Below, piece by piece: positions 24,385-62,318 of a stretch of 64,000 bases of DNA (the first letter of the stretch is position 1; the number at the start of each line of letters is the position of its first letter). The position numbers and the translations under genes were made by a program. The stretch is from Planctomycetota bacterium (GTDB taxonomy: Bacteria > Planctomycetota > Planctomycetia > JALXBF01), in NCBI GenBank assembly GCA_026981825.1, contig JALSID010000115.1, forward strand, positions 4,198 through 68,197, read 5' to 3'. The notes under the pieces are model-generated. The model was not told the DNA's origin. It saw only the letters and a program-made list of their open reading frames with translations, and searched no databases.

Positions 24385-26267
24385 CGACGGCTCCTGATTG
24401 CTTGCGGCTCAGTCCCCCTAGCCTCGTCCGGTGTGTACGGAGCGGGCCTGGTCCGATCCCCCTCAAGCTCCGGCGGCAACTCGTACGGCAGAGACTTCAA
24501 AAACTCCACGAGGGCGTCGATTTCGTCGTCCGATAGATGGCTGGTTCGCCCATGGCGATCTTCCCTGTTGTATGTGGTGAGGACATCTCGCAGAGTGCGA
24601 GCTTTGCCGTGATGAAGATAGGGGGCCGTACGGTATACGCCCAGCAAGGTCGGTGTGTCAAACGCGGGTCCCAGCTTCTCCGACGGATCATCCCGCCCCG
24701 TCCCAACATCGTGCATCTTCTGGTCCGTGTAGTACGGGCCACTGTGGCAGGTGGCACAGCCCACATCGGCACGGTAGAACAGCTCCCGGCCCTTTACGGC
24801 TTTTTCGCTCAATTTCCCCCCGCGAGCGTAGGGACTCAGCGTAAAGCCGATCGAATTGCAGTATTCTGCCAAAGCATCTAGAGCCTCGGAGCGGCCCGCA
24901 TTCGGAGCGCCAAGAGGAGGATTGGGCTTCCCCTGAATCAGACCACACCCCCGCATCAACGGACCGCGAATCGTGTGCTCAAAGTCCTGGACCTCGTCCC
25001 GGTCGGCGGACCAGTGCAGCGGATGGGTGTACCACAGCCCGGCAAGAGAGGGCGTATTGCGCGGCCCCTCGGGCATGTGCCAGGTACGCCCGTCCGGCTG
25101 ACCGTCCGGATGGCAGCTCGCGCAGCTTATCCATCGGCGCGCGACCATCGGCTGCAAAGCGGAATTGAACAGGATCTTTCCCAGGAGATGACGTCGAGAA
25201 TAGGGGGCAGTCGTCACGGTAACGCGGTCCACGATCTCCATGCTGTGCGTGTCAAAGACTGCCACACAGAAATCCAGGGCCGCGTAGACATAGGCGTACC
25301 TTCCGGTGGGGTCCACAACAACAGCCCGTGGATTGCGGCCGACGCGCACCAGCGGCCTGGCCATTTCGATCTCGTAGTAGTTGTCGTCCAGGACCCGATT
25401 CACGTGCATATCGTCCGTTCCTGCGTAGACGATGTACAGCATGCGGCCGTCCGGACTCACCGCCGCCTCCCACGGGTTCGCCACCGCAAAGAAACCGTTG
25501 TAGGTATCAAGCGAAATGGGCTTGCGCCGCTTACCCTTCACTCGGTCCAGGTCGACGACGGACAGGATCGGCGCGATCGAGCGATCCGCGTCGATGATGT
25601 CCACGTCAGAGCGAACGTGGGGAATGTAGGCCTTGGCTCGGACCGGGTTCAGGACCACGTTCCTCGCCAGGTTGTACTTCGGGACGGCTGTCCAGCGGTC
25701 CACAACACTACCGGAGGCCGTGTCGATCTTCAGCAGCTCAGCGGTATAGAACTCGGTGGCGTACAGCCATCGATCGTCGGGGGAAATCGCCACACCGCGC
25801 ACGAACCGGCCCACTTTCCAGGTTTTCACCAGTGTGCGGCGGTTGAGATCCACCACAGAAACGGCACCTGGGTAATCGTGAGACACATAGGCGAGCTTGC
25901 CATCCCGGCTGACGACCACGCCGTAGGGCTCGTCAGGCACACGGATCCGCGCCTCCACGCGACCGGCCACCCAGTCCAGCACGACCAGGACGTCCTCGTC
26001 GTAGACCGTGGCAACAGCAAAGCGGCTGTTCGGGACGACCGCCACCCCCTGTGGATTCCTGCCCACGGGCAGCTCAAAGAGCGCCTGCCGGGCCCCGGTA
26101 TCCACCACCGTAACGCTACCGCTGTCCGGATTGGCGCAGAGCAGCCGCTTACCGTCGGCCGTAACAGCGATCAGGCTGTTGTTTCGCGGTAGCGGATGCG
26201 CATCGCACCATGCCCACCCACGCAGGATCGTCACGAGCAACGCTGTTGCTAGCAAGGACCTGAGCAC
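24381..26267 (-). CDS. Beta-propeller (YVTN/YncE-like repeats) fused to a di-heme cytochrome c peroxidase (CCP/MauG family) domain
   Basis: Signal peptide MLRSLLATALLVTIL. The N-terminal half has repeated ...DGKxxYV... propeller-like blocks. The C-terminal half has two CxxCH heme motifs (CASCHPDG and CATCHSGPYYTD) in a CCP-like context (FNSALQP...SCASCH; RELFYRADVGCATCH). Confidence 0.8.
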   Translation of the reverse strand: MLRSLLATALLVTILRGWAWCDAHPLPRNNSLIAVTADGKRLLCANPDSGSVTVVDTGARQALFELPVGRNPQGVAVVPNSRFAVATVYDEDVLVVLDWVAGRVEARIRVPDEPYGVVVSRDGKLAYVSHDYPGAVSVVDLNRRTLVKTWKVGRFVRGVAISPDDRWLYATEFYTAELLKIDTASGSVVDRWTAVPKYNLARNVVLNPVRAKAYIPHVRSDVDIIDADRSIAPILSVVDLDRVKGKRRKPISLDTYNGFFAVANPWEAAVSPDGRMLYIVYAGTDDMHVNRVLDDNYYEIEMARPLVRVGRNPRAVVVDPTGRYAYVYAALDFCVAVFDTHSMEIVDRVTVTTAPYSRRHLLGKILFNSALQPMVARRWISCASCHPDGQPDGRTWHMPEGPRNTPSLAGLWYTHPLHWSADRDEVQDFEHTIRGPLMRGCGLIQGKPNPPLGAPNAGRSEALDALAEYCNSIGFTLSPYARGGKLSEKAVKGRELFYRADVGCATCHSGPYYTDQKMHDVGTGRDDPSEKLGPAFDTPTLLGVYRTAPYLHHGKARTLRDVLTTYNREDRHGRTSHLSDDEIDALVEFLKSLPYELPPELEGDRTRPAPYTPDEARGTEPQAIRSRR

Positions 26268-29098: not shown

Positions 29099-29457
29099 AC
29101 CAACGCTCCTGCATCGTGCCAGGTCCCACGGCAACCCGCTTCGCCGACAGCCTCTTGGACAGCTTCGGGCATCCCATCGACCGTTGGGATCGTCTTGCAC
29201 CCGCACCTGGGCGTAACCGCGTTCGCGCAAAGTCACTCAGCTTGCTCCGCGCAGACCGGCCGCTGTGTGGTGTGCGCGCCCCAGGGACCCCTGTGCCGCT
29301 CAGATTTCGGCCAGATCGGGCCGATCGATCCGATCAGTCCGATGCATCCCCAATTCCTACCGTTAGAATGGCAGACCAACGGGGCTGCCGTTCTGCTCCT
29401 AGTCACAGGCGAATTGGCAGCTTCCCACAGGACCGGACCGTCGAGGAGGCGATTCCG

Positions 29458-31839
29458 ATGGGCCCTAGTCGGCGCAGCTTCTTCCGCAGACTGGCGGGAC
29501 TGCTCACGCTCGGTCTCTATCGGCCGCAAGCTGATGCCTCTACTCCCAGCGACTTGACTCTACCGCCGGGCCAGGACGTGGTGCGCCCTCCGAGGACGGG
29601 CGAAACGCATATCAGAGCGCACTATGACGTGGTGGTCGTCGGTGGCGGCATCGCGGGGACCTGCTGTGCGATCGCAGCGGCGCGAAACGGAGCCCGCGTC
29701 GCTCTGGTCCACAACCGCCCCATGCTCGGGGGAAACTCCTCCAGCGAAGTCAAACTCTATCCGGAAAACAACAGTGCCCACCAGCCCTGGATCAAGGAAG
29801 GGGGTATCCATGAAGAGTTCCACACCGAAGAACGCGTCCGGAATCACCAGCCCTACGTGGAGGGGCTGATGAACTGCCACTGGGACCTGGTGCTGTACGA
29901 ATGGGCGATTCGCGAGCGATCACTTACCCTCCTGCTCAACACCCACATGCACCGGGTCCATATGGCTTCCAGGCACCGTATCCGCTCCATCGAAGCAATC
30001 CAGCTCGGAACCGAGAAAACGTACGAACTGTCCGCCGAAATCTTCGTGGACTGCACAGGTGACGGCTACCTCGGCTATCTTGCCGGAGCCGAGTTTCGCT
30101 GGGGTCGAGAGGGACGAGGCGAATTCAACGAACCGCTCGCTCCCGAGCAGCCAGACGACAAGGTAATGGGCAACACGATCTTCTTCCGCGCCTGGGATAT
30201 TGGCCGGCCCGTTCCCTTCAAACGCCCCGACTGGGCCGCCGAGTTTCCCACCGAAAGGGACCTCACCGCGCGCGGGCATTCCTTCATCGAAGGTGGTTAT
30301 TGGTGGATTGAGGTGGGCGCCCCATACCATCCCATTCACGACAACGACAAGATTACCCACGAGCTGCTTCGCCAGGCCCTCGGCGTTTGGGATCACATCA
30401 AGAACAAGGGAGACCATGGTGCCGAGAACTACGGCCTGGAGTTCGTCGGCTTCTGGCCGTACAAGCGCGAGGCCCGCCGCCTACGCGGTGACTACATCCT
30501 CACCCAACAACACGTCCAGGACCCGCCCGAATTGCCCGACAGCGTGGCATACGGCTGTTGGGGAATCGACATCCACGTTCAGGGTGGAATTTTGAACCGC
30601 CATGAGCCCCCCTACCCCCCACCACGCACCAATGACAACTGGGACCAGCTTGGTACGCTCGTCTACCCGATTCCCCTGCGCGCGCTGTATTCGCGCAACG
30701 TCCAGAACCTGATGATGGCCGGCCGGCCAATCAGTTGCACCTACATCGCGTTCGCCTCCAGCCGAGTCCTCTCTACCGGAGCGATCGTCGGACAAGCCGT
30801 GGGTACTGCCGCCGCACTCGCCGTGAGGCATCGGGTCCCGCCCCGCACCGTTGCTCAGCGGCACATCAAGGAATGCCAGCAATTGCTGTTGAGACAGGAC
30901 TGCCACATACCCGGAGTGGAGAACGAAGATCCCCAAGATCTGGCCCGCCAGGCCACCGTCACGGCAAGCAGCTCAGCTCGGCTGGTGTTTCCCCCCAAAC
31001 CGCTAGGGAGCTGGTCGCTAGGCAGACCTCTCGCCCAGGTGTTCCCCGTAAGCGGAGATCGAATCCAAGCCGTGAAGCTATGGCTGCGCTCTGTTGCCGA
31101 TCGGCCGGTACCCATCACCGTTGGGCTGCGACAGGCGCCCCATGTGTGGGATTTCCGCTCTACCAGTGATATCGCCAAGGCCGACGCGGTGGTCCCCCCC
31201 AGACATAACGGCCCGGTCGAGGTCGTATTCGACGCTCGGGTCAAGCCTCGCAAGCTGTACTACGTCTACGTGGACCGGGCGCCCGGCATCTTTTGGCAAG
31301 CCCATCGTGACGAGCCCGGTAAACCCAGCCTGGTCCCCCCTGGCGTGACTCCTGCCGACCTGCCCGGCTCGAAGATGTGGCGACCGGCCACGGGCGGCCG
31401 AGCTTTTCTCATGGAGCTGGATCCGCCCTCCTACCCCTTTGGTCCAGAGAACGTCAACCGAGGTACGAATCGGCCGGACCGGTGGACGAATATCTGGATC
31501 TCCGACCCCCAGGCAGGCCTGCCCGCCTGGATCGAACTCCGTTGGGATCGTCCGATCCAGTTCAACCTCGTCCAGATCACCTTCGATACCGACGCCCTCA
31601 AACGTGTGACCCTGCCCCTATTCCGCTACCCTGAATGCGTTCGTGACTACAGCATCCTGGTCTGGAAAAAGGGGAGGTGGGAGGAGCTTTGCACCGTCAC
31701 GGGCAACTACGTCCGCCGTCGGGCACATCGGTTTGACCCTATCACCGCGGATCGGCTCCGGGTACTCGTTCACGCGACAAACGGTGCGCCCTCGGCCCGA
31801 ATCTACGAGATCCGTGTGTACAACGAGCCGGTCTCCTGA
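29458..31839 (+). CDS. Tat-secreted FAD-dependent oxidoreductase (pfam12831-like) with a C-terminal beta-sandwich (discoidin-like) domain
   Basis: Start at MGPSRRSFFRRLAGLLTLGL (twin-arginine motif SRRSFF). A Rossmann dinucleotide motif YDVVVVGGGIAGTCCAIAAARNGARVALV follows. The C-terminus DRLRVLVHATNGAPSARIYEIRVYN is discoidin-like. The listed ORF begins earlier at 29116, but there is no signal for that. Confidence 0.7.
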   Translation: MGPSRRSFFRRLAGLLTLGLYRPQADASTPSDLTLPPGQDVVRPPRTGETHIRAHYDVVVVGGGIAGTCCAIAAARNGARVALVHNRPMLGGNSSSEVKLYPENNSAHQPWIKEGGIHEEFHTEERVRNHQPYVEGLMNCHWDLVLYEWAIRERSLTLLLNTHMHRVHMASRHRIRSIEAIQLGTEKTYELSAEIFVDCTGDGYLGYLAGAEFRWGREGRGEFNEPLAPEQPDDKVMGNTIFFRAWDIGRPVPFKRPDWAAEFPTERDLTARGHSFIEGGYWWIEVGAPYHPIHDNDKITHELLRQALGVWDHIKNKGDHGAENYGLEFVGFWPYKREARRLRGDYILTQQHVQDPPELPDSVAYGCWGIDIHVQGGILNRHEPPYPPPRTNDNWDQLGTLVYPIPLRALYSRNVQNLMMAGRPISCTYIAFASSRVLSTGAIVGQAVGTAAALAVRHRVPPRTVAQRHIKECQQLLLRQDCHIPGVENEDPQDLARQATVTASSSARLVFPPKPLGSWSLGRPLAQVFPVSGDRIQAVKLWLRSVADRPVPITVGLRQAPHVWDFRSTSDIAKADAVVPPRHNGPVEVVFDARVKPRKLYYVYVDRAPGIFWQAHRDEPGKPSLVPPGVTPADLPGSKMWRPATGGRAFLMELDPPSYPFGPENVNRGTNRPDRWTNIWISDPQAGLPAWIELRWDRPIQFNLVQITFDTDALKRVTLPLFRYPECVRDYSILVWKKGRWEELCTVTGNYVRRRAHRFDPITADRLRVLVHATNGAPSARIYEIRVYNEPVS

Positions 31840-32199
31840 GATAGAGTGTCGCAATGCAGAACCGTGAACGCCGCAGCAGGGGCGATCGCCCGCATTACGC
31901 TCCGGCTCGCGGTAGGGAAACCGGTGGCGTGAGAATAACGTGAGCGTGCAAACACGGGGGTCCCAGGGAGCCCACGCCGGTAAGCGGTTGCGAGCGTGCC
32001 TCCGGTCCGGCGTTCGGAAGCGTCATCCCGTAAAAAAGGATCAGGGCCGTCTCCGAGCTGAAGGGGTAGAAGGGGAGAGGTGGGCCCGTGGCAGTATCGC
32101 TGCCGTGCTCAACCGGTCCCGATGAGGATCGGAGCGTCCCCCGAGCTGTGGCACTGGTCCCGATCTGAATGGGACAAGTACCTCGAGCAGGTGCCGGCT

Positions 32200-33783
32200 A
32201 TGACATCGACAGAACGCGAAGCGATGCCCTGTACGCCAAAACCCGTGGCGGACTCCGCCAGGCGTAACTCGTTCACCGTGTTGCCGGAGCCCACGGTCTT
32301 TGTGGTCTTCGGGGCCACGGGGGATCTCATGCGGCGCAAGCTCATGCCGGCCCTCTACAACCTGCATCTGGACGGTCTGCTCCCCGAACAGACCGTAATC
32401 GTGGGCGTGGGACGGCGAGAACTCAGCGACGACCAGTTCCGCAACATGATGCGCGAAGCTGTCCGGGACCACTCCCGGAGGGGAATCGGTGATGAACAAC
32501 GCTGGGAGTCGCTCAGTCAGCGCACCTTCTACGTGCGGTGTGCTTTCACAACCACCGAAGGCCTGCAAGAGCTCAAAGGGAAGCTCGATCAACTGGACGA
32601 GCAGTACGGCACGGGTCGCCGAAGATTGTTCTATCTGGCGGTTCCCCCCCACCTGTTCGAGCCTATTGTCAAGGCATTGCGCGAAACCGGCCAGGGAGAC
32701 CTGCGCGCCGATGTGGCCGATGACTGGAGACGGCTTGTGGTCGAGAAGCCCGTGGGGACAGATTTCCGGTCAGCTTGCCGCCTAAATCACGAAATCAGTC
32801 TCACGTTCCACGAGCGGCATGTCTTTCGTATCGACCATTACCTGGGCAAGTTCACCGTCCAGAATCTGTTGGTGTTCCGGTTTGCGAACGCACTTTGGGA
32901 GCCCGTCTGGAACCGGAACCACATCGACCACGTGCAGATCACCGTGGCAGAAGACATCGGTGTGGCAGACCGCGGTGAGTATTACGACGCCACAGGAGCG
33001 CTTCGGGACATGGTGCAGAACCACCTCCTCCAGTTGCTTTGCCTCACCGCGATGGAACCGCCGGCATCCCTCGAGGCAGACGCGATACGCGACGAAAAGG
33101 TCAAGGTTCTTCGCGCCATCCAAACGACGGCACCGGCTCAACCGGGTCCGGTCGTCGTTCGTGGGCAGTACACGCGCGGCTACGTGGACGGCAAGGAGGT
33201 GCCCGGATATCGGGAGGAGCCCGAGGTGGCGCCGGATTCGACGACCGAGACGTTCGTGGCGTTGAAGCTGTTCGTGGACAACTGGCGGTGGGCGGGCGTG
33301 CCGTTCTACCTGCGTACCGGTAAACGGCTCGCTCGGCGCGTGACCCAGATCGTCATCGAGTTCCTCCGGCCCCCATCCGTACTGTTTTCGAAGCAGTTCC
33401 CCCAGAGTATCCAGAGCAACGCTCTCGTGATCGAGATCCAGCCCGACGAGGGGATCTCACTTGAATTCAACGCGAAAGTGCCCGGTACGCTCACGCAGAT
33501 CCGAACCGTGGACATGGAATTTAGCTTCGGGGACGATTTCGGCTCGTATTCTCCCGAAGCGTATGAGCGGCTCCTGCTGGATGCCATGCTTGGCGATGCC
33601 ACTCTGTTCACACGCCGGGACGAGGTCGAGCTTGCCTGGGCGATCGTGGACCCGATCCGCGCATGGTTCGACCAACTGCCTCCCCCCGAGCCGTATCGCG
33701 CCGGTACCTGGGGACCTCCGGGCGCCGACCGGATGATCGCCGCCGACGGACGGTTCTGGCGGAACCCGGACCAAGGGAATTAG
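32200..33783 (+). CDS. zwf: Glucose-6-phosphate 1-dehydrogenase
   Basis: NADP-binding [21 protein letters not shown] and active-site RIDHYLGK motifs; length about 527 aa from ATG 32200 (MTSTEREA) within ORF 32080..33783. Confidence 0.9.
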
Positions 33784-33953: not shown

Positions 33954-36900
33954 ATGACGACGCGAACGATGTTTCGAGGCAAAGCACTCTGCACGATTAT
34001 CACCGTCGGCTTGTTCTGCACGATCCTGTGCCCGCAAACCGCCCACGCTGCCGACCGGGTACTGGTGCTGGGCAAGAGCCTGAGCGAACTTTTGCCGGAT
34101 GCATACAGGGCCACCGAGCAAGGCTTGCCTTCCTCGGCCGTCCCCCCTGAGCTGATCGAACAGCACCGCGCTGTGATTGTCGATCTCACTGGTGTTACCC
34201 CCGACCGACTCGACGCGGTCGTTACCCTGGCCCGCCAGTTCGTGCAGGCCGGGAAGGGCTGTGTGTTTGTGGGCGTCGCTCGGGAGCTGTCTCCCCTGTC
34301 CGCCCTCGTCGGCGCTCAGGTCAGCGGCCCGACGGGGGCCTTCAAGGCACGTCTCTGGTTCATCGACACCGGTCACCCTGTCAGCAAGGGGCTGCGTGGA
34401 ACAATATGCCCCCTAAAGAGGATCGAAACAGGGGAGCTCTCCAACGATTGTCGTGCCCTTGTTGCTGCCTACCAGGATGGCGGTCTCCAACCCTACGTCT
34501 GGCTGCGCAGGTTTCCCTCTCGTGGCCGTCTGTTCATCAGCCTTCTGCCGAAAGAGACCTACACGACGCCCGTCTTCCGCGAACTGGTAGCTCGCGCCGT
34601 GCGGTGGGCGACCGGTGATCTCAACCTCGATCGTTCGGTCTTCCGCTACAAGGAGGTCGAAAACATCCCTGTGTACCGACCCGACCGCCGGGTAGAGCGT
34701 CAGACGAAGATGCAACTGCCCCTTCCCGCAGAGCTCTCCATGCAGAGATATGCCCTTCCGGAAGGCCTCCGGCTGCAACTGTTCGCAAGCGAACCCCTCG
34801 TCGTCAAACCGATTTGCATGACCTTCGGTCCACGCGGCCGCCTCTGGGTGGTGGAGTCGGTAGACTATCCGAACAACGTCCTCCCCAACCCCGAACGAAA
34901 CGGTAACGATCGGATCAAGATTCTGGAAGACACGGACGGAGACGGTCGAGCGGACAAAGCCACCATCTTCGCGGACAAGCTCAATATCCCGACCAGCCTT
35001 CTCCACGTCAGAGGTGGTCTGCTCGTTGCCTGCGCCCCCCACATCCTCTTTCTCAAGGACACCGACGGCGACAGGCGTGCCGACGTGCGCCGCATCGTTT
35101 TCACCGGCTTCGGTCGTGCCGACACCCATGCCGTCCACGCCAACTTCCACTACGGGTTCGACAACTGGATCTGGGCCACGGTCGGGTACAGCGGCGGAGA
35201 AATCAAGCTCCACGGCAAGCGGATCAGCTTTCGCCAGGGCGTGTTCCGATTCAAACCGGACGGCAGCGCTTTCGAGTTCGTAGCCCCCACAACAAACAAC
35301 ACGTGGGGACTGGGCTTCAGTCCCGACGGAGATGTGTTCGTCTCCACGGCCAATAACCAACACAGTTTTTACCTGGCCATACCCAACCGCTACTTCGAAC
35401 GGGTGCGGGGCTGGTACGCCACGGGAATCGCCAGAATCGAAGACCACAAGAGATACCACCCAATAGGACCGTACCGTCAGGTGGATTTCCACGGGGGGTT
35501 CACCGCCGCCAGCGGTCACAACTTCTACGGCGATACCCGCCTCTTGCCCATCTACAACAACCGGGCCGCCCTGGTGACAGAGCCGACGGGGCACCTGGTG
35601 CACGTCTGTCTACCGGTTCAGCGGGGCAGCGGTTTCGTTACTCGCGACGGCTACAACCTGGTAGCGAGCGATGACGAATGGGCAGCCCCCATTGCGGCTG
35701 CACCTGGTCCGGACGGTGCCGTCTGGTTCCTGGACTGGTACAACTTCATCGTGCAACACAATCCGACTCCCCCCGGTTTCCGAACCGGCCTCGGAAACGC
35801 CTATGAAACCCCCCTGCGCGACAAAACGCACGGACGCGTGTACCGGGTGGTGGCCGAAGGTGAAGCCCGGCAAGAGCAGCCGAATTTCCCGGATGCCTCC
35901 GATGACGAACTCGTTGCTTTGCTCGGCCACGAAAGCATGTGGTGGAGGCTGCACGCCCAGCAAGAGCTCGTCGAACGAGGCGACCTGTCCGTTGCGCCCA
36001 AGCTGGAATCGTTCGCCCGTGCAAACCGCGACTCGCGCGCGGCGATTCATGTCCTCTGGACTCTACACGGTCTGGGGGTAACCGACGAGCTCGTTCGCGC
36101 GGCCCGGGTGTGTCTGGGCAGCAAGCATCCGGCGGTCCGACGAGCCGCGGTCCAGACGTTGCCGCCTACTCGTGAAACCGTCGGCATCCTGCTCGAAGCC
36201 GGCGCCCTCAGTGATGACGACTTTCGAGTGCGGCTTGCGGTGCTCCTAAAGTTCGCCGATTGCCCCCCGGACGATCGTATCGCCGCCAAACTCGTCGGAG
36301 TTTTCCTTGACGAAAGCGTGGCTCGTGACCGCTGGCTCCCCCTGGCCGCCATCTGCGCGGCTGCCACGAATGACGTCGCTTTCCTGAAAGCCGCATGTAC
36401 GGTGGCTAGAGCGTCGGAACTGCTGGCACGGGCGGTAGAGGTGGTGGCGGAACATTGGAGTCGCGGAGCGCCCGCACCGGAACAATTCCGACAACTCGTT
36501 CGAACGTTGCAGAACGCGTCGGAGCCTGTCTTAAATGCCTTCTGTCAGGGGGTCATCCGTGGCTGGCCAAAAGGTCATGACGCGGGTAACCTCGATGAGT
36601 CGGACCGCCGGCTTGTCCTTCACCTGGTACGCTCCACTCCCCCTGCTGTGCGCCCTGGCCTTGTCCTGCTATTCCGCAGAGTGGGCTGGTCGGCACCCAT
36701 CGGCGAATTCGTCGCCAAGGTGCGGGAAGAATTGCTCCACAGGCTGGACAATCGTAGTCTGCCAACACGTGACCGACTTGAGGCGGCAGAGCGTCTCCTG
36801 AGACTCGATCCCTCCGACGAAACCGTCCGCGCGCTGGTGAGCCGTATCGCGGTTGCCGAACCGCCGGAGTTCAACAAGAGCCTGATCGATTTCCTGGCTC

Positions 36901-38204
36901 GCACGGATAGCCCAGCAGTGGCAAGCGAGCTTCTGCAGCGGTGGCGAACTTACTCGCCCGAACTGCGCCGCCTCGTCGTTCGAACCCTGTTGCAGCGTCC
37001 CGTTTGGGCGAGTCAACTGGTAGCCGCGCTGCGCGCCGGTGTCCTAAACCGCGCCGACCTCACCCTGGACCAACGTCAGCTTCTGCTCGCTCATCCGGAT
37101 CGACACATCCGCGAACAAGCGCAGGCCCTGTTTCAGGGGGCCGTTGTGTCTGCAGGTCGAGAGGACGTCCTGAAGCGGTACCTTCCGCTCGCCGACCGGA
37201 AAGGCAATCCAACGGCAGGTCGGAAAGTGTTCGAGGAGAACTGTGCGAAGTGCCACCGGTTCGAGGAGATCGGTGAGGCGGTGGGCCCGGATCTGACCGG
37301 AGTAGCTGTTCGCGGTCGTCGCGCGATCTTGACGGACATTCTCGACCCAAACCGCTCGGTCGAGGGCAACTTTACCCAGTATCTCGTGCTCACCCGGGAC
37401 GGAAGGGTCTTGACCGGCCTACTTGCTGCCGAGACCCGCACCGCCATCGAGCTTATCGACACAGAAGGAAACCGCGTGATCGTCTTAAGAGAAAACATTG
37501 AAGAGATCACGAATTCCGGCAAGTCGCTCATGCCGGAGGGGTTTGAGCAGCAGCTTAAGCCCGAGCAGATCGTTGATCTGCTCGCCTTCCTGACTCAGCA
37601 ACGACGGTTCGTCCCGATCCCTATCCGGCGTGCTGCCACGATCGTGACGACCCAGGGCATGTTCTACCGCAAGGAGTCCCCCACCGAGCGATTGGTCTTC
37701 AGCGATTGGGGGCCGAAAACGTTTAAGGGAGTCCCGTTCCACCTCGTGGATCCCAAAAGCACGCTTCAGCCGAACGCGATCATGCTGTACAGCCCGAATG
37801 GTGCCGTCAGCCGAGAGATGCCGCGGCGTGCAGAGGTGGAGTGCAATCTGCCTGCCCGGGTTGTCCACATCCTGGGCGGCGTAGCCGGTTGGGGCTACCC
37901 GGCCTCACCCGCGGGTACGACCTCCATGGTCGTCCGGTTTCATTACGCCGACGGTTCCTCCGAGGACCACCGGCTGATCAACGGCGTACACGTCGCCGAC
38001 TACATTCGCGTGGTTGACGTACCCGGATCGGAGCTTGCCTTCGTCCTGCGGGGCAGACAGCTTCGCTACCTCGCGATCGAACCAAAGAAACGGGAAGTTA
38101 TCCGGAAGATCGAGTTTCTGAAAGGCGACGATAATACGGCCCCCATCGTAATGGCGATTACGGTCGAACTGCCCGGCGAAGGACGTGCCAGCTCGGGTAG
38201 CTAG
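33954..38204 (+). CDS. 1416-aa secreted multidomain protein. Domains: ThuA-like N-terminal domain, glucose/sorbosone-dehydrogenase-like beta-propeller ('membrane-bound dehydrogenase domain'), HEAT repeats, c-type heme CxxCH domain, C-terminal domain of unknown function (PVC-type heme-binding protein family)
   Basis: Signal peptide MTTRTMFRGKALCTIITVGLFCTILCPQTAHAA. Propeller-like blocks (DGDGRADK, DGDRRADV, FSPDGDVFVS). HEAT-like repeats (AVRRAAVQTLPP...). A single CAKCHRFEEIGEAVGPDLTG heme-binding motif is followed by LMPEGFEQQLKPEQIVDLLAFL. It is collinear with ORF 57821..61915 through the propeller, HEAT and heme regions. Confidence 0.8.
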   Translation: MTTRTMFRGKALCTIITVGLFCTILCPQTAHAADRVLVLGKSLSELLPDAYRATEQGLPSSAVPPELIEQHRAVIVDLTGVTPDRLDAVVTLARQFVQAGKGCVFVGVARELSPLSALVGAQVSGPTGAFKARLWFIDTGHPVSKGLRGTICPLKRIETGELSNDCRALVAAYQDGGLQPYVWLRRFPSRGRLFISLLPKETYTTPVFRELVARAVRWATGDLNLDRSVFRYKEVENIPVYRPDRRVERQTKMQLPLPAELSMQRYALPEGLRLQLFASEPLVVKPICMTFGPRGRLWVVESVDYPNNVLPNPERNGNDRIKILEDTDGDGRADKATIFADKLNIPTSLLHVRGGLLVACAPHILFLKDTDGDRRADVRRIVFTGFGRADTHAVHANFHYGFDNWIWATVGYSGGEIKLHGKRISFRQGVFRFKPDGSAFEFVAPTTNNTWGLGFSPDGDVFVSTANNQHSFYLAIPNRYFERVRGWYATGIARIEDHKRYHPIGPYRQVDFHGGFTAASGHNFYGDTRLLPIYNNRAALVTEPTGHLVHVCLPVQRGSGFVTRDGYNLVASDDEWAAPIAAAPGPDGAVWFLDWYNFIVQHNPTPPGFRTGLGNAYETPLRDKTHGRVYRVVAEGEARQEQPNFPDASDDELVALLGHESMWWRLHAQQELVERGDLSVAPKLESFARANRDSRAAIHVLWTLHGLGVTDELVRAARVCLGSKHPAVRRAAVQTLPPTRETVGILLEAGALSDDDFRVRLAVLLKFADCPPDDRIAAKLVGVFLDESVARDRWLPLAAICAAATNDVAFLKAACTVARASELLARAVEVVAEHWSRGAPAPEQFRQLVRTLQNASEPVLNAFCQGVIRGWPKGHDAGNLDESDRRLVLHLVRSTPPAVRPGLVLLFRRVGWSAPIGEFVAKVREELLHRLDNRSLPTRDRLEAAERLLRLDPSDETVRALVSRIAVAEPPEFNKSLIDFLARTDSPAVASELLQRWRTYSPELRRLVVRTLLQRPVWASQLVAALRAGVLNRADLTLDQRQLLLAHPDRHIREQAQALFQGAVVSAGREDVLKRYLPLADRKGNPTAGRKVFEENCAKCHRFEEIGEAVGPDLTGVAVRGRRAILTDILDPNRSVEGNFTQYLVLTRDGRVLTGLLAAETRTAIELIDTEGNRVIVLRENIEEITNSGKSLMPEGFEQQLKPEQIVDLLAFLTQQRRFVPIPIRRAATIVTTQGMFYRKESPTERLVFSDWGPKTFKGVPFHLVDPKSTLQPNAIMLYSPNGAVSREMPRRAEVECNLPARVVHILGGVAGWGYPASPAGTTSMVVRFHYADGSSEDHRLINGVHVADYIRVVDVPGSELAFVLRGRQLRYLAIEPKKREVIRKIEFLKGDDNTAPIVMAITVELPGEGRASSGS

Positions 38205-38461: not shown

Positions 38462-39853
38462 TTAGCGCCTCTCTCTCGAAGGCCAGGGCACCTCTGGGCT
38501 GTCCGTCGCTCGCGCCCGGAAAAAGGCTGGACACGGACGCGTTGACCGGATCTGTTCGATCCAGATCACCCCGTCGAACGCGCCGCTGTTGCCCCGGGTC
38601 GTGAGGAAGTCTACCAGTCCGTCCTCATTGAGATCGGTTGGAATGAACATGTCGTACATTGCCCGACGGCGGCGCGATATCGGATAGCGGATCCACAGCT
38701 CCGTCGGTCGCTCGGGCTGCTTAAACCAGACCAGGCAGCCGCACCTGTCCGACGGACGGATTACGGCCGGTTCGTGTAGGCGGGGGCCGGCACTGTAGCC
38801 CCCCACGATTAGATCCTTTTGACCATCGCCGTCGATGTCCGCTAGCCCGAGCCCTGTCGCCCAGTCGGGAGAGACATCGCCGATAAGGTGGAGCTGCCAC
38901 CGGCCTCCGTCCATCCGCGCCGGCTGCTGCAGCCAGAATACCCGCCCGCCGTGGTCCTCTTCCGTAATGATGTCCAGCCGACCGTCCCTATCGAGATCAA
39001 TGAACTGCATCATGAAGCCCTCGCTCGGAGGATTTGAACCCGAGTAGATGGGGATCGTTCGCCAGGTGTCCCGCTCGCGGTCCAGACAGACGATCCGCTT
39101 CTCGCCTCTGCTAGCGGCGACGAGCTCCAACGTGCCATCCCCGTCTAAATCGACGGGGCGCACGTTGATGGGGGTCCTGCACCGCCAGACCACTTTCTCC
39201 GTCCATTCGCGACCGTTGCGGGGTTGAGCCCCAGGGTAGAGAATAGACACGCTTGTCCCCCCTTTGTTCGCCGCCACCAGCTCGTTGTGCCCGTCTCCGT
39301 CGAGGTCCACCACTGCCAGGCGGATCCAGCTCCCACGCCCACGCGTGGCTTGCACGATCACGGGTAGCCAACCGCTGTGCTCGCGCGGCCGCCCCAGGTT
39401 GAAGAAGACGACAACATGGCCGCGTTCGCACGCCACGGCCACGTCATCCCAGCCGTTGCCGTCCAGATCACCGATGGAAACGTCTTCGCAATCCCCGACA
39501 AGCGGCCCCTTACCAAGCGTGAGGCTCCCCGACCATCCCGGCTGACGACGGACCTCGATTGGCCCCCCGAATACAGCGCGAACATGGGAACTGTCCTCAT
39601 GCACGGCAATCACGTCGATAAAGCCGTCCCGATCAAGGTCCCCCACTGCCAGCCCGTCGGCCCCCAGAATGCGCTCGCCGGCGACGCCCCCATCATCGAC
39701 GATGTGCTCGCGCCAGGCGATGTAGGCGCCTCGCGATATACGAGCCGCAGGGAAGGGATGATCGGAACCGACTGGGCCGGACGCCAGGGAGAACCACACG
39801 GCCAGCACTAGCTGCAGAAATACGCCGCACATGGCTGTCTGCACCTTTTCCAT
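38462..39853 (-). CDS. Secreted FG-GAP repeat (integrin-alpha-like beta-propeller) protein
   Basis: Signal-like N-terminus. Multiple DLDGDGxxD / DLDRDGxxD / DIDGDGxKD Ca-binding FG-GAP motifs spaced about 50-60 aa apart. Confidence 0.75.
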   Translation of the reverse strand: MEKVQTAMCGVFLQLVLAVWFSLASGPVGSDHPFPAARISRGAYIAWREHIVDDGGVAGERILGADGLAVGDLDRDGFIDVIAVHEDSSHVRAVFGGPIEVRRQPGWSGSLTLGKGPLVGDCEDVSIGDLDGNGWDDVAVACERGHVVVFFNLGRPREHSGWLPVIVQATRGRGSWIRLAVVDLDGDGHNELVAANKGGTSVSILYPGAQPRNGREWTEKVVWRCRTPINVRPVDLDGDGTLELVAASRGEKRIVCLDRERDTWRTIPIYSGSNPPSEGFMMQFIDLDRDGRLDIITEEDHGGRVFWLQQPARMDGGRWQLHLIGDVSPDWATGLGLADIDGDGQKDLIVGGYSAGPRLHEPAVIRPSDRCGCLVWFKQPERPTELWIRYPISRRRRAMYDMFIPTDLNEDGLVDFLTTRGNSGAFDGVIWIEQIRSTRPCPAFFRARATDSPEVPWPSRERR

Positions 39854-57059: not shown

Positions 57060-57815
57060 TTACTCTGCCTCTCCACCCGGCAGCGGCCGCAGCTCGTTAC
57101 TCCGCAGAGCGAGCACCGTGCTCCTCAGCAAGGCCGCCAATTTCGCGCGCGCCAGGCCGAACAGGTCTTCCACAGGCGCCGAGACTACCTCCCACTGATG
57201 GGGGACACCGATCGCGACCAGCTTGTCATGCAACCGCTCGATCCCCCGGAACCAGGTCGCATCGTCCCGGTTGGCCAGCAGGCTGATCGCAAGAGGCCGG
57301 TTTAGGGGGTTAATCCAGAGCGTTGCGGTCAACTGCCGCGCGCTCTCGACATCCGGAAACACCCGCTGGAGCAGTTCATCCTCCCAATAGCGCTGGTGAA
57401 AATCGATCCAGGGCTGCACGGCAGCAACCCCGGCGAACCGCCGGGGATGGCGGAAGGCGATTCGCAAGGCACCCTGACCGCCCGTGCCAACCCCGCTCAG
57501 CACGACCTGAGCGGGCCGATACCGCTCGTGCAGCCAATCAAAGACGGCTTCGGCCACCCACGCGTCCGGCGTGAGCTGCGCGTCGAATTCTTCCACCTGC
57601 CGGTGGAGCCACCACGTACCCCGGGCCTCCAGCAGAACCACGGGACAGCGCAGTTGCTCAGCTTCCTCCTCGATCAGCTCTGCGCACGCAAACGGCTCGA
57701 ACAAATCGTGCCCCAAACACACAATCGCGGTGTCCCCCACCGCCTGCGGCTTATACACCAGCGTTTGATGGCCGACAACGCGATGCTCCTGCCAGCGATC
57801 GGACGGCACGTGCAC
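57060..57815 (-). CDS. Esterase D / 'putative esterase' family alpha/beta-hydrolase homolog with the nucleophile Ser replaced by Gly (GVGTGG in place of GHSMGG)
   Basis: LSGVGTGGQGALRIAFRHPRRFAGVAAVQP aligns to the esterase-D consensus ..AGHSMGGHGAL.IAL.NP..F..V.A..P with a Ser-to-Gly change. It starts 5 nt after the stop of the upstream giant gene, on the same strand. Confidence 0.55.
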   Translation of the reverse strand: MHVPSDRWQEHRVVGHQTLVYKPQAVGDTAIVCLGHDLFEPFACAELIEEEAEQLRCPVVLLEARGTWWLHRQVEEFDAQLTPDAWVAEAVFDWLHERYRPAQVVLSGVGTGGQGALRIAFRHPRRFAGVAAVQPWIDFHQRYWEDELLQRVFPDVESARQLTATLWINPLNRPLAISLLANRDDATWFRGIERLHDKLVAIGVPHQWEVVSAPVEDLFGLARAKLAALLRSTVLALRSNELRPLPGGEAE

Positions 57816-57820
57816 CTCCT

Positions 57821-60800
57821 TTACTGACCACCAGCAGTCTGGGCCGCAGAATCGCCCAGCAAACGAACCTTGAGGTTACGTATTCGCACCGCAAATCCGT
57901 CGTCGCTCCTGATCTCGAATCCGACGGCGCCGCGCAACCGAGCCGCGGGATCGTCATGCTCACGCAGCACTTTCCCATCCCGGTACAGCGTTAGCCGCGA
58001 ACCCTGAGCAACGAGCCGCACGGCCCCGGACCTCGCCCCCGTCAGCCCGGCGGATGGCAGGAGAATGCCGCGCCCCCCACGCTCCAGGACCGCTCCAGAG
58101 CGCGGCCCTGTCAGAGGAATCTGGTAGCCAACGAGTTTGCCGTCGGTTCCAAACCCACACCGGAACAGAACCGAGAACTCTCCCGCTCCATCGACCTCAT
58201 AATCGAAGGAAAGCTCGAAATCCTCAAACTCGAATTCCGAAAGGATGACCGTACTGCCCCCGTTGAGCCGCCCCTCCAGCGTTCCGTTCTCGGCGCGCCA
58301 GGTCGGGCCGGTCACGAGCCAGTAGGTAAGATCGGTTCCCGAGAAGAACAGCGAGATGTTGCCCGGTCGGGCGAGGATCGGGGTCTGCCGGGGACTGGCG
58401 AGATACGCGAAGAGGGAACGCACCTCATGGGGCGTGAGTTGTTCCAGCAGGTTGTCGGGCATCATCGACTGCTCCGATTGCCGCATCGCCTCGATCTCGT
58501 CCCTGGCCAACGTCAGTTGCTCGTCGGCAGTCTGGACCACCAGGTACCGGTCCGTTTGCTGACGTACGATACCGGTAATGACTCGACCGTCGGCGGTCGC
58601 AATGATGTGCGGGATGTAGTCATTGGCCATGACCGCAGAGGGGTCGAGCACGTTGGAAAGAGCGTAGTCGAGGTCGGCCCGGTTGGAACCGGTCAAATCT
58701 GGCCCCACGTGCCCGCCCTTACCGAACAACGTGTGACATTGGGCACAGATCTTTTGGAACACAGCGCGTCCCAGGGCCACATCTGGGGCGGGAAGGTCGG
58801 TCCTTTCGATCAGCTTGCGGTAGCGTTCGATCAGCGCCTGCTTCTCTGCGTCGCTTCGCCGCACATGCCCCCAAACTTTTTCGATGCGTTTTCGAAGGTT
58901 GTCGTCGGACACATTGACAAGCTGCCGAATGAGATCAGCAGTGAGGTCGGTTCGGGGCACCGTTCCATGAGCCACCGCGTCGAGCAACTTCGCCGCCCAC
59001 TCGCGTCTGGTACTGAGCACCGCCAGTGTCGCTCGCTTTTCGAGGGGGCGAAGCTTGGGATAGCGATCCAGTAGGATCTTCGGCAAGACGGGATCCGCCA
59101 CGGCAGCGGCCCCCCGAATCGCCCGGCTCGTCAGAGCTTCGCTGTCCCGACCATCGGTCAGGACGCGCACGATCTCGACCAGAGCCGGATCGTGCACCTG
59201 GATGAGCGCATCGAGGGCTCGCATTCGGCTCGGTTGAGGGGCTGAACGATCCAGGACGACGTCACGCAGGGAACGCAAGGCCGCTTTATCGCCAAAGCGA
59301 ACGCTTAAGCCGACCACCGCATCACGCACCCGGGCATCGGGGCTGCGCATCAGCCGAACCGCAACCTGGGCCCATCCTGCCGGCGGAGCGATTTTCCTTT
59401 TCCCTTTCAACGCCGTTTCGAAGGCCGCCAGGATCTCGAGTTGTTCTTCCACCGACTTCGAACTGCCCAATGTGTTCGTGAGCAGCTCCAGAGCCTCAGC
59501 CGTACCCAGATCGCCAACCCGACGGAACGTGAAGCGTCGCACCAACCGAATGGCGCCTTTCCGCGCCACCTGGATCGCCCGGGGGGGATCGGACGCCACC
59601 AGGGGTTCAAAAGCGTACCAGTACATGTACGGCAGGTTGTGATCGGTGTTGTCCTCCGCATGAGCCAGCAGCCTTCGCAGAACTTCCCACCGCTGCGACA
59701 GGTCGGTCCGCTGCATGGCGGAGGCCAGGTAGAGCCGCACAATGGGTGAGGGGTCATGGGCAGCAAGATCGGGCAGCCGCTGGACCAGCTCCGAAGGGGG
59801 GGAATCCTCAAAACCGAGCTGAATGGCCCAGGCGCGGACGTACTCGTTCTTGTCTTCCAACATGCGGGTGAGGTCGCTAGGACGGAGCGCGTTGCAGACG
59901 TGCAGGGCCCACGCCGCACGCAGCCGGTGCCGTGGATCCGGAGCCGTCGCCAGGCTCTTCCGCAACAGCTCGATCGCGTCGGCGCTCACCCCGCCGGAGG
60001 CTGCCCGCTCCTGAAGGAGCCGCCTGGCCACGCGCACGTACCAGTCGTTCGGATGATGTTGCAGCCTGGCAAGCTCAACATCGCTCAGTCTGGCCAGGTC
60101 CAGCTTGCCCGACCGATACTGCTGCAGCAACCGCGCGTACAAGGAATCGGTTGGACGGGCCTGCCGATCTTGACCGCTGTCCCGATACACGATCTTGTAC
60201 ACCCGCCCGTTCGATCGGTCGTGCACTCGGGGGTCGGTCCGGTGGCACTGGTTACGGTCGTACCAGTCGATGACAAAGACCTGTCCGTCTGGTCCGTACC
60301 GCAGGTAGAGCATTTGCGACCAGTAATCGCCCGTGATCAGGAAATCCGGCCCGTGATGGCCGACGAACCCGGAGCCGCGGCGTTCGAGGATGTCCATATT
60401 GGTTCGTGCTCCGTGGATGTTGTTCATGAACAGCTTGCCGCGGTACTGCGCGGGCCAGGCGTCGCCCAGGTAGACCATGGCGCCGGCATGAGCGTGGCCA
60501 CCCCCGGCTGCTACAGTGTCTGCCGGAGTGATCGGGGTGTGGCCCCAGTGAGCGTGTTCCTGTATGGCCCCCTTGTAGTGGAGATGGTCGGCGATGGTCT
60601 TGATGTCGTCGTAGACGTAGGGATTGAAATGCTGCCCCGCCTGTCTCTGGTACCTGCCCCCTTGGATTACATGGTACAAGTGGGGGATCACGCATGCGGT
60701 GATGAATGCCTGGCCGAAGTCGTCGAAGTCCACACCCCAGGGGTTACTCGTCCCGTAGGCAAACACTTCGAAACGCTTCTTGACCGGATGGTACCGCCAG

Positions 60801-61915
60801 ACGCCCGCATTAATCCGCACACGCTGCTCATCCGGTGTGCCCGGTTTTCCCACCCGCGAATGGGTGAAGACGCCGTGACATCCGTACAGCCAACCGTCCG
60901 GGCCCCAAATGAACGAGTTCAGTGTCTCGTGTGTGTCCTGATAGCCCCAGCCGTCCAAGACAACCTCCGGTGGCCCATCCGGACGGTCGTCTCGGTCTCG
61001 ATCGGGGATGAACAACAGATAGGGTGCGGCGCCCACCCATACCCCACCGAAGCCGACCTCGATACCGCTAACCAGGTTGAGCCCGGTGCAGAAGATTTTG
61101 CGGCGGTCCATCCTCCCATCGCCGTCCGTGTCCTCGAAAATCAGGATCCGGTCCTTCCCCTTACCCTCCGGCTGGCGAACGGGGTAGGTGTACGCCTCCA
61201 CCACCCACAGGCGGCCGCGTTCGTCGATGGTCATGGCGATCGGTTGGCGCACATCCGGTTCGGCGGCAAAGACGCGCACCTCGAACCCAGGGGGAAGCTG
61301 CATGACCCGGGCTGCCTCTTCTGCTTTCAGGCCCTGGTACGGGAACGGGTTGTCGGCACGGGCTTGGATTTTTGGGGGGGCATCGTGGAGACGGAAGTCA
61401 TCGAAGTTGATGTGGCCCCAATGGCCCGAGTGTTGATCGATTACGCGGACAAACGCCACTTTGCCCAGGTGCTTGCGCAGATCGACGACAACCCGGCGCA
61501 TGTCCTCGCGGTCCTGACCGGACGCCTGGAACAAGACCGTTCCATCAGCGAGAACCACTTCCACGCGGGTCTCCTTGTGATGGCCGCCCCCCACCAGAAA
61601 GCTCGCCCAGGGTTTCGTAATCCGAAACGGGCTGGAGACGAGTACGCCAGTGGGGGCGTCACCCCCCACCTCGTACGTCCCGATCCAGTACTGGCCCTGA
61701 TGTCTGCTGTGCATATCCTGCCGCCTACGGTGGACGGTGTCCCCCCGAACAGGCTGACCACGAAACGCTTCTCCTTCGGCGCGCCAGTCACGAAGGTCAC
61801 CGGTCTCGAAATCCAGGTTCAGTGGCCGACCGTCCAGACCGACCGGCAGATCACCATCGGAACCGGACCGAGCGGCCAGACCGGCGAGAAGAAGAGCAGC
61901 TACCAGGCGGAGCAT
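57821..61915 (-). CDS. 1364-aa secreted multidomain protein (paralog of 33954..38204). Domains: N-terminal ConA-like/DUF1080-like jelly roll, glucose/sorbosone-dehydrogenase-like beta-propeller, HEAT repeats, c-type heme CxxCH domain, C-terminal DUF1080 (3-keto-disaccharide-hydrolase-like) domain
   Basis: Start MLRLVAALLLAGLAARSG (ATG 61913-61915; the listed ORF begins 36 codons earlier with no signal peptide). Heme motif CAQCHTLFGKGGHVGPDLTG...LMPDNLLEQLTPHEVRSLFAYL is collinear with CAKCHRFEEIGEAVGPDLTG...LMPEGFEQQLKPEQIVDLLAFL in the other copy. Propeller blocks (FEDTDGDGRMD, PDRDRDDRPD) and HEAT repeats are present. C-terminus WRAENGTLEG...DFELSFDYEV...VLFR is DUF1080-like. Confidence 0.8.
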   Translation of the reverse strand: MLRLVAALLLAGLAARSGSDGDLPVGLDGRPLNLDFETGDLRDWRAEGEAFRGQPVRGDTVHRRRQDMHSRHQGQYWIGTYEVGGDAPTGVLVSSPFRITKPWASFLVGGGHHKETRVEVVLADGTVLFQASGQDREDMRRVVVDLRKHLGKVAFVRVIDQHSGHWGHINFDDFRLHDAPPKIQARADNPFPYQGLKAEEAARVMQLPPGFEVRVFAAEPDVRQPIAMTIDERGRLWVVEAYTYPVRQPEGKGKDRILIFEDTDGDGRMDRRKIFCTGLNLVSGIEVGFGGVWVGAAPYLLFIPDRDRDDRPDGPPEVVLDGWGYQDTHETLNSFIWGPDGWLYGCHGVFTHSRVGKPGTPDEQRVRINAGVWRYHPVKKRFEVFAYGTSNPWGVDFDDFGQAFITACVIPHLYHVIQGGRYQRQAGQHFNPYVYDDIKTIADHLHYKGAIQEHAHWGHTPITPADTVAAGGGHAHAGAMVYLGDAWPAQYRGKLFMNNIHGARTNMDILERRGSGFVGHHGPDFLITGDYWSQMLYLRYGPDGQVFVIDWYDRNQCHRTDPRVHDRSNGRVYKIVYRDSGQDRQARPTDSLYARLLQQYRSGKLDLARLSDVELARLQHHPNDWYVRVARRLLQERAASGGVSADAIELLRKSLATAPDPRHRLRAAWALHVCNALRPSDLTRMLEDKNEYVRAWAIQLGFEDSPPSELVQRLPDLAAHDPSPIVRLYLASAMQRTDLSQRWEVLRRLLAHAEDNTDHNLPYMYWYAFEPLVASDPPRAIQVARKGAIRLVRRFTFRRVGDLGTAEALELLTNTLGSSKSVEEQLEILAAFETALKGKRKIAPPAGWAQVAVRLMRSPDARVRDAVVGLSVRFGDKAALRSLRDVVLDRSAPQPSRMRALDALIQVHDPALVEIVRVLTDGRDSEALTSRAIRGAAAVADPVLPKILLDRYPKLRPLEKRATLAVLSTRREWAAKLLDAVAHGTVPRTDLTADLIRQLVNVSDDNLRKRIEKVWGHVRRSDAEKQALIERYRKLIERTDLPAPDVALGRAVFQKICAQCHTLFGKGGHVGPDLTGSNRADLDYALSNVLDPSAVMANDYIPHIIATADGRVITGIVRQQTDRYLVVQTADEQLTLARDEIEAMRQSEQSMMPDNLLEQLTPHEVRSLFAYLASPRQTPILARPGNISLFFSGTDLTYWLVTGPTWRAENGTLEGRLNGGSTVILSEFEFEDFELSFDYEVDGAGEFSVLFRCGFGTDGKLVGYQIPLTGPRSGAVLERGGRGILLPSAGLTGARSGAVRLVAQGSRLTLYRDGKVLREHDDPAARLRGAVGFEIRSDDGFAVRIRNLKVRLLGDSAAQTAGGQ

Positions 61916-62318
61916 CGACTTACCCCCGCATGCGTTGTTCGCGAAACACAGGATGTTCGAACTTAATTCTAAACTCGGCTCGGGGCTGTGCCCCCGAATA
62001 ACCTGCAAGACCCCTGGCATCACGACGCTTCCTTACAGCTCCATGCCGATCGGCTCACGCGGTACGGTCAGCGCCGCCGGCCGGTGACATGTTTGCCCGC
62101 ACCGCGGAGCCCGGTGCACATCGAGGCGTGCCACCCTTTGGGTTGGCGGGCCCCCCATGCCCAGACGTCTGGCCTGAGCTGGTTCGTGTTGGAACCACAT
62201 ATCTTCCGTGCCCGCGCCCGGCACTTCCTCTCCCACCAAGAGGCGTCACTGAAGAGATGCCGGTCGGTGCACGATTAGGTATCCTTTGAATCGGACCCAC
62301 CCGCCGGAGGAGAAGGAG

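Follow-up and report, generated by a model that had tools for sequence, protein, structure and literature searches.

The DNA analysed here, a 64-kb (64,000-nucleotide) stretch of the metagenome contig JALSID010000115.1 from a Planctomycetota bacterium and referred to below as the window, has a G+C content of 63% and contains two very long open reading frames (ORFs). Their products, A and B, share a core in which a beta-propeller and a HEAT solenoid are followed by a cytochrome c domain. A preliminary description of the window had picked out both ORFs, and both are real. A is encoded as an identical protein on a metagenome contig and has more than 100 orthologues of equal length and architecture. 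For B, an alternative GTG start at position 62023 lies upstream of the ATG and would lengthen the protein by 36 residues, to 1400; the N-termini of homologues lead us to favour the ATG as the probable start. Each gene faces a long antisense ORF, at 59756-61966 on the forward strand (736 residues, opposite B) and at 34413-35603 on the reverse strand (396 residues, opposite A). These are the usual stop-poor frames at 63% G+C and not genes.

Read from its N-terminus, A consists of a signal peptide, a degenerate ThuA-like domain, a DUF7133 propeller, a HEAT solenoid, a cytochrome c domain and a C-terminal beta domain assigned to no family. The order in B is a signal peptide, an N-terminal beta domain likewise unassigned, a DUF7133 propeller, a HEAT solenoid, a cytochrome c domain and DUF1080. 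Residues 1-32 of A, with a basic N-region, a hydrophobic core and an A-H-A site, form a probable Sec signal peptide when judged by eye, and the N-terminus of B, judged in the same way, is also signal-peptide-like. The features are as follows, with positions in the window first and residue numbers in brackets.

33954..38204, forward strand: protein A, 1416 residues.
33954..34049, forward strand: probable signal peptide of A (1-32), ending ...TAHA/AD.
34053..34628, forward strand: apparently degenerate ThuA-like domain of A (34-225); PF06283 at 31.0-32.9 bits, below the gathering threshold (GA) of 33.4.
34731..35858, forward strand: six-bladed propeller of A, DUF7133/TIGR02604 (260-635).
35901..37193, forward strand: HEAT/alpha-solenoid of A (about 650-1080), matched by HEAT_2 and helical at model residues 411-857.
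37203..37598, forward strand: class I cytochrome c domain of A with a beta "nose", TIGR02603 (1084-1215); CxxCH at 37242-37256 and distal Met1193 at 37530-37532.
37614..38201, forward strand: C-terminal all-beta domain of A (1221-1416, about 190 residues), well conserved; about 12 strands in the model, with pLDDT 85-97.
57821..61915, reverse strand: protein B, 1364 residues counted from the ATG.
61331..61858, reverse strand: N-terminal beta-sandwich-like domain of B (20-195); 9-10 strands in the model, with pLDDT about 90; 48 invariant columns among 13 sequences.
60182..61324, reverse strand: six-bladed propeller of B, DUF7133/TIGR02604 (198-578); TIGR02604 at 410 bits; 10 invariant His and 3 invariant Cys.
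58796..60145, reverse strand: HEAT/alpha-solenoid of B (about 591-1040), matched by HEAT_2 and HEAT; helices at 572-1038 in model numbering.
58394..58786, reverse strand: cytochrome c domain of B with the nose insertion, TIGR02603 (1044-1174); CxxCH at 58733-58747 and distal Met1152 at 58460-58462.
57863..58351, reverse strand: C-terminal DUF1080 / 3-keto-disaccharide hydrolase domain of B (1189-1351); PF06439 at 35.6 bits against a GA of 26.8, covering profile positions 5-187 of 187.

The two proteins align by BLASTP in a single collinear segment that pairs A257-1225 with B196-1183 (28% identity over 1044 columns, E 9e-79), and a tblastn search across the window found no third copy. Both exceed the curated cut-offs of TIGR02604, the "Piru_Ver_Nterm" propeller domain (237.9 bits for A and 409.6 for B against 122.2, with the full model covered in each), and of TIGR02603, a putative haem-binding domain (119.2 and 105.6 bits against 68.15). 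Pfam matches common to A and B are PF23500 (DUF7133; E 4e-110 for A, 4e-70 for B), HEAT_2 and Cytochrom_C. Exactly one CxxCH motif occurs in each protein, at residues 1097-1101 of A and 1057-1061 of B. A and B thus belong to the heme-binding CxxCH proteins of the type named after the Planctomycetes-Verrucomicrobia-Chlamydiae (PVC) group. They have the domain order of that family, its single CxxCH and its conserved Met segment, and nothing defining differs. Within it they represent two architectures, one with a ThuA-like domain and a C-terminal beta domain, the other with an N-terminal beta domain and DUF1080. The preliminary description had proposed a collinear core, membership of the TIGR02603/TIGR02604 family, one CxxCH in each protein and a common redox scaffold with differing end modules; domains, alignment and the architectures of orthologues uphold all of these. 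It had also held the family to be restricted to Planctomycetota and Verrucomicrobiota, which broadly agrees with the names of the matches.

The only solved relative of the haem domains found by sequence is Kustd1711 of Kuenenia stuttgartiensis (7zs0; E 4e-11 for A and 7e-16 for B). Foldseek agrees on 7zs0 for both, at 27% identity for A, and the CxxCH motifs accordingly fall in a cytochrome c domain rather than in a disordered linker. When the haem domain of B is compared with 7zs0 by phmmer (E 4.5e-18), Met1152, in the sequence SMMPDN, aligns with Met292; the counterpart in A is Met1193, in SLMPEG. The two Cys and the His of CxxCH, the distal Met and the Pro that follows it show no variation across 89 A-type and 76 B-type sequences. 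The LMP(E/D) segment, whose conservation had been noticed earlier, would therefore hold the sixth haem ligand, since Met292 aligns with the invariant Met1152 of B. In Kustd1711 the C-terminal domain belongs to the class I cytochromes c and contains a beta "nose" as an insertion; its haem has His/Met ligation, with Met292 as the distal ligand, and in the Ca-bound state a potential of about +350 mV (PMC11791136). A six-coordinate His/Met haem argues for a role in electron relay rather than in catalysis. Cytochrome and nose align over the whole TIGR02603 domain of A and B; Kustd1711, however, is a free-standing dihaem carrier of the anammoxosome, whereas A and B each carry a single domain of this kind, predicted to bind one haem covalently and joined to an enzyme-like body.

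Models were made with AlphaFold2 (AF2) from family alignments for A 240-1416 (pLDDT 89.6, pTM 0.80) and B 20-1185 (pLDDT 86.8, pTM 0.79). Foldseek matches the model of B to 3a9g, which resembles soluble glucose dehydrogenase (sGDH), with a TM-score of 0.67. Alignments by hhalign of the A or B propeller profile with YliI or with five sGDH sequences are not significant (probability 0.1-11%). A DUF7133 profile that includes the subfamily of gp4978, a Gemmata protein discussed below, can be aligned over its full length with an sGDH profile of six sequences, built from PDB relatives and the 1cru sequence (probability 98.7%, E 1.6e-16, 311 columns). By this alignment the propeller of A and B is a true homologue of the soluble glucose/sorbosone dehydrogenases that use pyrroloquinoline quinone (PQQ). 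The propeller had been called SGDH-like in the preliminary description, which is right as a statement of homology; the positions that hold the PQQ carboxylate are, however, replaced. A homologue search with E. coli YliI gave, among the matches listed, only enterobacterial proteins with at least 77% identity, and PF07995 (GSDH) is matched by neither A nor B at E<=0.01.

From the structural literature on sGDH we take H144 to be the catalytic base, R228 and N229 to act on PQQ or substrate, K377, R406 and R408 to hold the PQQ carboxylate, and Q246 to lie next to the Ca ligands. These residues were mapped onto A and B through the profile alignment, with the numbering checked against the 1cru sequence.

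sGDH H144: A H392, B H329; invariant in both families.
sGDH N229: A N449, B N391; kept.
sGDH R228: A N448, B S390; replaced.
sGDH K377: A T545, B H501; replaced.
sGDH R406: A A578, B Q534; replaced.
sGDH R408: A I580, B L536; replaced.
sGDH Q246: A A466, B C408; replaced.

The replacements are conserved within the A family and within the B family. At K377, R406, R408 and R228, A and B differ from sGDH (1cru/1c9u), YliI (2g8s), 2ism and 3a9g as well as from AA12 (6jt5, 6i1t), and the Ca-binding Q-G-P segment of sGDH and AA12 is also replaced. A further difference from both groups is that the cytochrome of A and B is c-type and C-terminal, with a long HEAT solenoid between propeller and haem domain. 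Since the PQQ-carboxylate positions are replaced in both proteins, a PQQ quinoprotein mechanism is not to be assumed. At 63 positions the two families have the same residue with at least 90% conservation; the pocket is under strong constraint, yet it is no canonical PQQ site. In B, C408 and H501, which are among its invariant His and Cys residues, stand at former PQQ-ligand positions of sGDH, and the His-rich loops at residues 426-475 are the sole low-confidence part of the AF2 propeller model. The invariant residues and the unplaced loops together suggest that B may bind a metal or another cofactor.

The HEAT solenoid follows the propeller in both proteins and is about 430 residues long. That of A matches alphaRep and YibA in the PDB, and PP2A-A and importins by Foldseek; that of B matches PP2A-A and karyopherins by Foldseek. 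Among the matches listed in three Foldseek searches were only those to propeller, HEAT and cytochrome parts, and the C-terminal domain of A and the N-terminal domain of B came out just as "all-beta".

Outside the core the two proteins have different end modules. A ThuA-like N-terminus had been proposed for A, and the assignment stands for the lineage: most A-orthologues carry clear PF06283, and a profile of the orthologues matches the ThuA-like structures 1t0b and 4e5v. It stands less well for A itself, which scores below GA. In A and its two closest relatives 35 of the 82 family-conserved positions of the domain are kept, and the motifs HHRP, HCASHCF, WDETYVH and GHD, conserved in about 85 orthologues, are lost. 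We read the domain in A as catalytically degenerate, and it looks like a pseudo-enzyme kept as a scaffold. The C-terminal domain of A had been described as lacking a known family, and indeed it has no Pfam match even at E 10 and no PDB match with a profile. By a full HMMER search it is present in 591 representative clusters. Some proteins have it behind HEAT and cytochrome c domains, and Ser/Thr protein kinases contain one to three copies; it also occurs together with FGE-sulfatase, leucine-rich repeat and kinase domains, and together with WD40 and AbfB domains. This distribution would fit a mobile ligand-binding module.

For B, DUF1080 had been placed at both ends. The C-terminal assignment is confirmed by the PF06439 score given above and by an orthologue profile that matches the DUF1080 structures 4jqt (E 2e-28) and 3imm. 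The N-terminal one fails: hhalign of the N-terminal domain with the C-terminal DUF1080 profile gives a probability of 1.1%, a profile search of the PDB found no relative and no DUF1080 structure, and Pfam was not matched at E 10 by the domain alone or by the 13 family members. The N-terminal domain has a non-significant match to sandwiches of the carbohydrate-binding module (CBM) type, as in Stig-cyclase/HpiC1 (E 0.05-0.5). The idea that it resembles CBM66 or levanase found no support in PDB or Pfam and was dropped.

BT2157, a hydrolase of 3-keto-trehalose, belongs to the DUF1080 family, and DUF1080 genes cluster with that of the periplasmic lactose 3-dehydrogenase LacABC; ThuAB and LacABC are periplasmic, cytochrome c-dependent 3-keto-glycoside dehydrogenases (PMC8121099, PMC9007349). 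B shares DUF1080 with this pathway and the A lineage shares ThuA. The known dehydrogenases of the pathway are GFO/Idh/MocA or FAD enzymes, however, whereas A and B are propellers, and the ThuA-like domain of A is degenerate.

Each architecture is widespread. More than 100 full-length proteins of about 1420 residues have that of A, at 42-60% identity, and come from Gemmataceae, Pirellulales and other planctomycetes. A search with B returned 8000 of 8000 scored candidates at E<=1e-10; the B architecture is common to the matches listed, at 50-71% identity, which include cultured Blastopirellula, Roseiconus and Stieleria. The two orthologue sets together cover Gemmataceae, Pirellulales and Isosphaeraceae, and some B-orthologues have an extra N-terminal FG-GAP region. 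Because each of the two proteins is far nearer to its own orthologues than to the other, the split between them is ancient: they are separate old lineages that happen to sit 20 kb apart, with no recent duplication. The preliminary description had proposed module swapping between paralogs, but no local event of that kind is seen, as A and B are only 28% identical and each architecture is kept in more than 100 orthologues. It had also treated two paralogues in one 64-kb window as noteworthy. Limnoglobus roseus holds 20 TIGR02604 genes in 9.4 Mb according to its genome paper, so two copies per 64 kb are within expectation and no more than chance would give. In Limnoglobus the TIGR02604, DUF1080 and PF01408 families are all expanded. 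Taken by themselves, the two genes are nothing unusual within a curated and very large family, to which they add little.

Whole-model Foldseek searches match A and B to IFT-A, clathrin, Elp1 and nucleoporins, with TM-scores of 0.10-0.15. The proteins were therefore compared with the PVC "membrane-coat-like" proteins, which are defined by a propeller followed by a solenoid and were reported in copy numbers of 5-16 from Blastopirellula, Planctomyces, Gemmata, Rhodopirellula, Verrucomicrobium, Chthoniobacter and Pedosphaera (PMC2799638). Their founding member is gp4978 of Gemmata, which was immunolocalised in 2010 near membranes (PMC2799638). Its residues 60-464 were modelled on the sGDH 1cru, and residues 682-958 on the HEAT protein YibA (PMC2799638, Text S1). 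We find that the propeller fragment of gp4978 scores 179 bits with TIGR02604 (cut-off 122), 117 bits with DUF7133 and 28.9 bits with GSDH (GA 25). Its orthologue in Gemmata algarum (L010:3866-7297; 89% identity, 1144 residues) has a signal-peptide-like N-terminus, scores 95 bits with TIGR02603 and is collinear with B (E 1e-26). The founding coat-like protein is thus a minimal member of the haem-binding CxxCH family. It has the propeller-then-solenoid order of A and B; it differs from them in consisting of propeller, HEAT and cytochrome c only (1144-1158 residues), without their end modules, and in keeping the "RN" motif of sGDH, which is NN in A and SN in B. Relatives of gp4978 with 62-65% identity lie on contigs of metagenome-assembled genomes labelled Bacteroidales or Alcaligenaceae (L064, L066, L072); in all likelihood the contigs are planctomycete ones that were mis-binned, and do not show an occurrence outside PVC. 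The literature searched, which is incomplete, contained no paper that joins the "membrane coat-like" label with haem, and the link has perhaps been made elsewhere.

We tentatively favour the reading that A and B are periplasmic, substrate-specific oxidoreductases that pass electrons through their own His/Met haem to the respiratory chain, with a pocket that is derived from sGDH and no longer PQQ-like. In this scheme the proteins would be exported to the periplasm through their signal-peptide-like N-termini, and the propeller pocket, which keeps the general-base His of sGDH and the neighbouring Asn, would be the catalytic site; B, with its dense invariant His and Cys in the pocket, probably would use a different cofactor or a metal. 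Carbohydrate-derived substrates would be oxidised in the periplasm. The high-potential His/Met haem would release electrons singly, and cytochromes, either soluble or in the membrane, would carry them to the terminal oxidase. Electron flow to terminal oxidases has likewise been predicted for six-bladed PQQ propellers of bacteria that have a cytochrome fused to them or encoded nearby (bioRxiv 10.64898/2026.07.10.737718). The end modules would give each lineage its specificity or follow-up chemistry, by way of DUF1080 (the family of the 3-keto-glycoside hydrolase BT2157) and the beta-sandwich in B, and of the degenerate ThuA-like domain and a ligand-binding-type beta domain common to sensor kinases in A.

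Several points weigh against this reading. The PQQ-binding residues of sGDH are missing in A and B, and the sole redox cofactor that can be assigned is the single haem; a one-electron haem alone cannot carry out the two-electron oxidation of a sugar. The only biochemical report on a family member describes hydrolytic, not redox, activity. A comparison of the neighbourhoods of four orthologues found no conserved operon. The signal peptides are a judgement by eye only. For A the link to carbohydrates is indirect, both because its ThuA-like domain is degenerate and because its C-terminal domain resembles a binding or sensor module.

An alternative is that A and B are canonical quinohaemoproteins, with PQQ bound in the propeller as in sGDH, YliI and AA12, that oxidise aldoses or pyranoses and reduce the fused cytochrome c. 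The homology of the propeller to sGDH, with catalytic His and Asn kept, would suit such a role, as would the fused cytochrome, which is like that of known quinohaemoproteins and of pairs of six-bladed PQQ propellers with cytochromes. The gp4978 subfamily moreover keeps the "RN" motif and scores above the Pfam threshold for GSDH. We consider this alternative improbable, however, because in place of K377, R406 and R408 A has T/A/I, B has H/Q/L and even the gp4978 orthologue has G/V/T, and these residues are conserved within each family; R228 has given way to N in A and to S in B, PF07995 is unmatched by either protein, and a non-exhaustive scan of the ORFs in the window found no pqq genes.

It is also unlikely that, at least in the B lineage, the propeller is not a quinoprotein but a metalloenzyme (Cu, Fe or other) whose metal centre oxidises or oxygenates a glycan-derived substrate and exchanges electrons with the haem. 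The 10 invariant His and 3 invariant Cys of the B-family propeller would be in keeping with this, with C408 and H501 at the Q246 and K377 positions of sGDH, and the failure of AF2 to place the His-rich loops at 426-475 is as expected for order that depends on a cofactor. Known metal-site motifs are not matched, however, most of these His and Cys are absent from the A lineage, and periplasmic Cys may simply form disulfides.

The proposal that TIGR02604 proteins are a new beta-galactosidase family, that is, non-redox glycoside hydrolases in which the haem domain is accessory, seems to us rather improbable. It goes back to purified Lac161_ORF7 (TIGR02604, HEAT and cytochrome c), which freed glucose from lactose with a Km of 1.8 mM and a kcat of 13 per s (PMC5342196), and the Limnoglobus genome paper also treats the family as putative hydrolases. 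The assay used a His-tagged protein from E. coli BL21(DE3)pLysS and measured glucose release alone (PMC5342196). Three unrelated proteins in the same study gave Km values of 1.8-3.2 mM, near the 2.0 mM quoted for LacZ. As we see it, carry-over of host LacZ was not excluded, and we therefore give the beta-galactosidase function low weight. The CxxCH and distal Met, invariant in 165 sequences, would be hard to explain in a hydrolase, and the nearest fold relatives are dehydrogenases.

That A and B are structural proteins shaping or coating internal membranes, as proposed for gp4978, is very improbable: although they belong to its family, have the propeller N-terminal to an alpha-solenoid, match IFT-A, clathrin, Elp1 and nucleoporins as whole models and have in gp4978 a relative seen near membranes (PMC2799638), the TM-scores to coat proteins are only those given above, an N-terminus that looks like a signal peptide and a haem domain of the c type, matured outside the cytoplasm, are present in A, B and the gp4978 orthologue alike, the propeller pocket is invariant in the manner of an enzyme, catalytic-type accessory domains are fused to the core, and deletion of the Planctopirus homologue Plim_1972 left dextran uptake unchanged (PMC5394234). 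This deletion, the immunolocalisation of gp4978 (PMC2799638) and the purification of Lac161_ORF7 (PMC5342196) also show that the family, to which the preliminary description had ascribed no experimentally defined function, is not without experimental work.

The family matters more than the two genes do. Genomes of planctomycetes and verrucomicrobia have 5-20 copies of it, an expansion without an accepted function, and in the literature searched it goes under the names haem-binding dehydrogenase-like protein, new beta-galactosidase family and membrane-coat-like protein, which are not connected with one another. Taken together, the haem domain and signal-peptide-like N-terminus of the founding coat-like protein, the sGDH-homologous propeller with its remodelled pocket and the solved, high-potential His/Met haem type offer a concrete enzymatic alternative to the coat hypothesis that can be tested. 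It is possible, if doubtful, that the PVC "membrane-coat-like" proteins as a family are periplasmic cytochrome c-fused enzymes that arose from PQQ sugar dehydrogenases, lost the canonical PQQ site and use another cofactor or a metal, with A and B feeding glycan-derived electrons into respiration.

One gene lies close to B and on the same strand, starting 5 nt downstream of it.

57060..57815, reverse strand: esterase-like gene, PF00756 at 24.8 bits against a GA of 22.

It is probably co-transcribed with B. An esterase gene is also found near P0123, a B-orthologue with 63% identity, and is absent beside the Blastopirellula orthologue, which adjoins a GFO_IDH_MocA gene and a gene for an FG-GAP/AUDH-like propeller. 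A ROK-family regulator lies upstream of one A-orthologue. DUF1080 and the GFO_IDH_MocA/AUDH-like, ROK and esterase neighbours point to carbohydrate chemistry, as hints and not as proof.

Other genes lie near A. Just downstream, on the reverse strand, an FG-GAP propeller gene occupies 38462-39853; compared with FG-GAP parts elsewhere (L006:3568-4782 and the extension fused to many B-orthologues) it has repeat-level similarity only, and a closer correspondence with that extension was rejected. Directly upstream of A and on the same strand, 29116-33783 encodes a 907-residue FAD_oxidored protein (PF12831) and a glucose-6-phosphate dehydrogenase, an order of genes that the source contigs also have. 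Farther upstream, the reverse-strand gene at 24381-26267 encodes a beta-propeller with lactonase/cytochrome d1-like repeats, a di-haem CCP/MauG-like region and a cytochrome c domain, and its product is another haem protein of periplasmic type.

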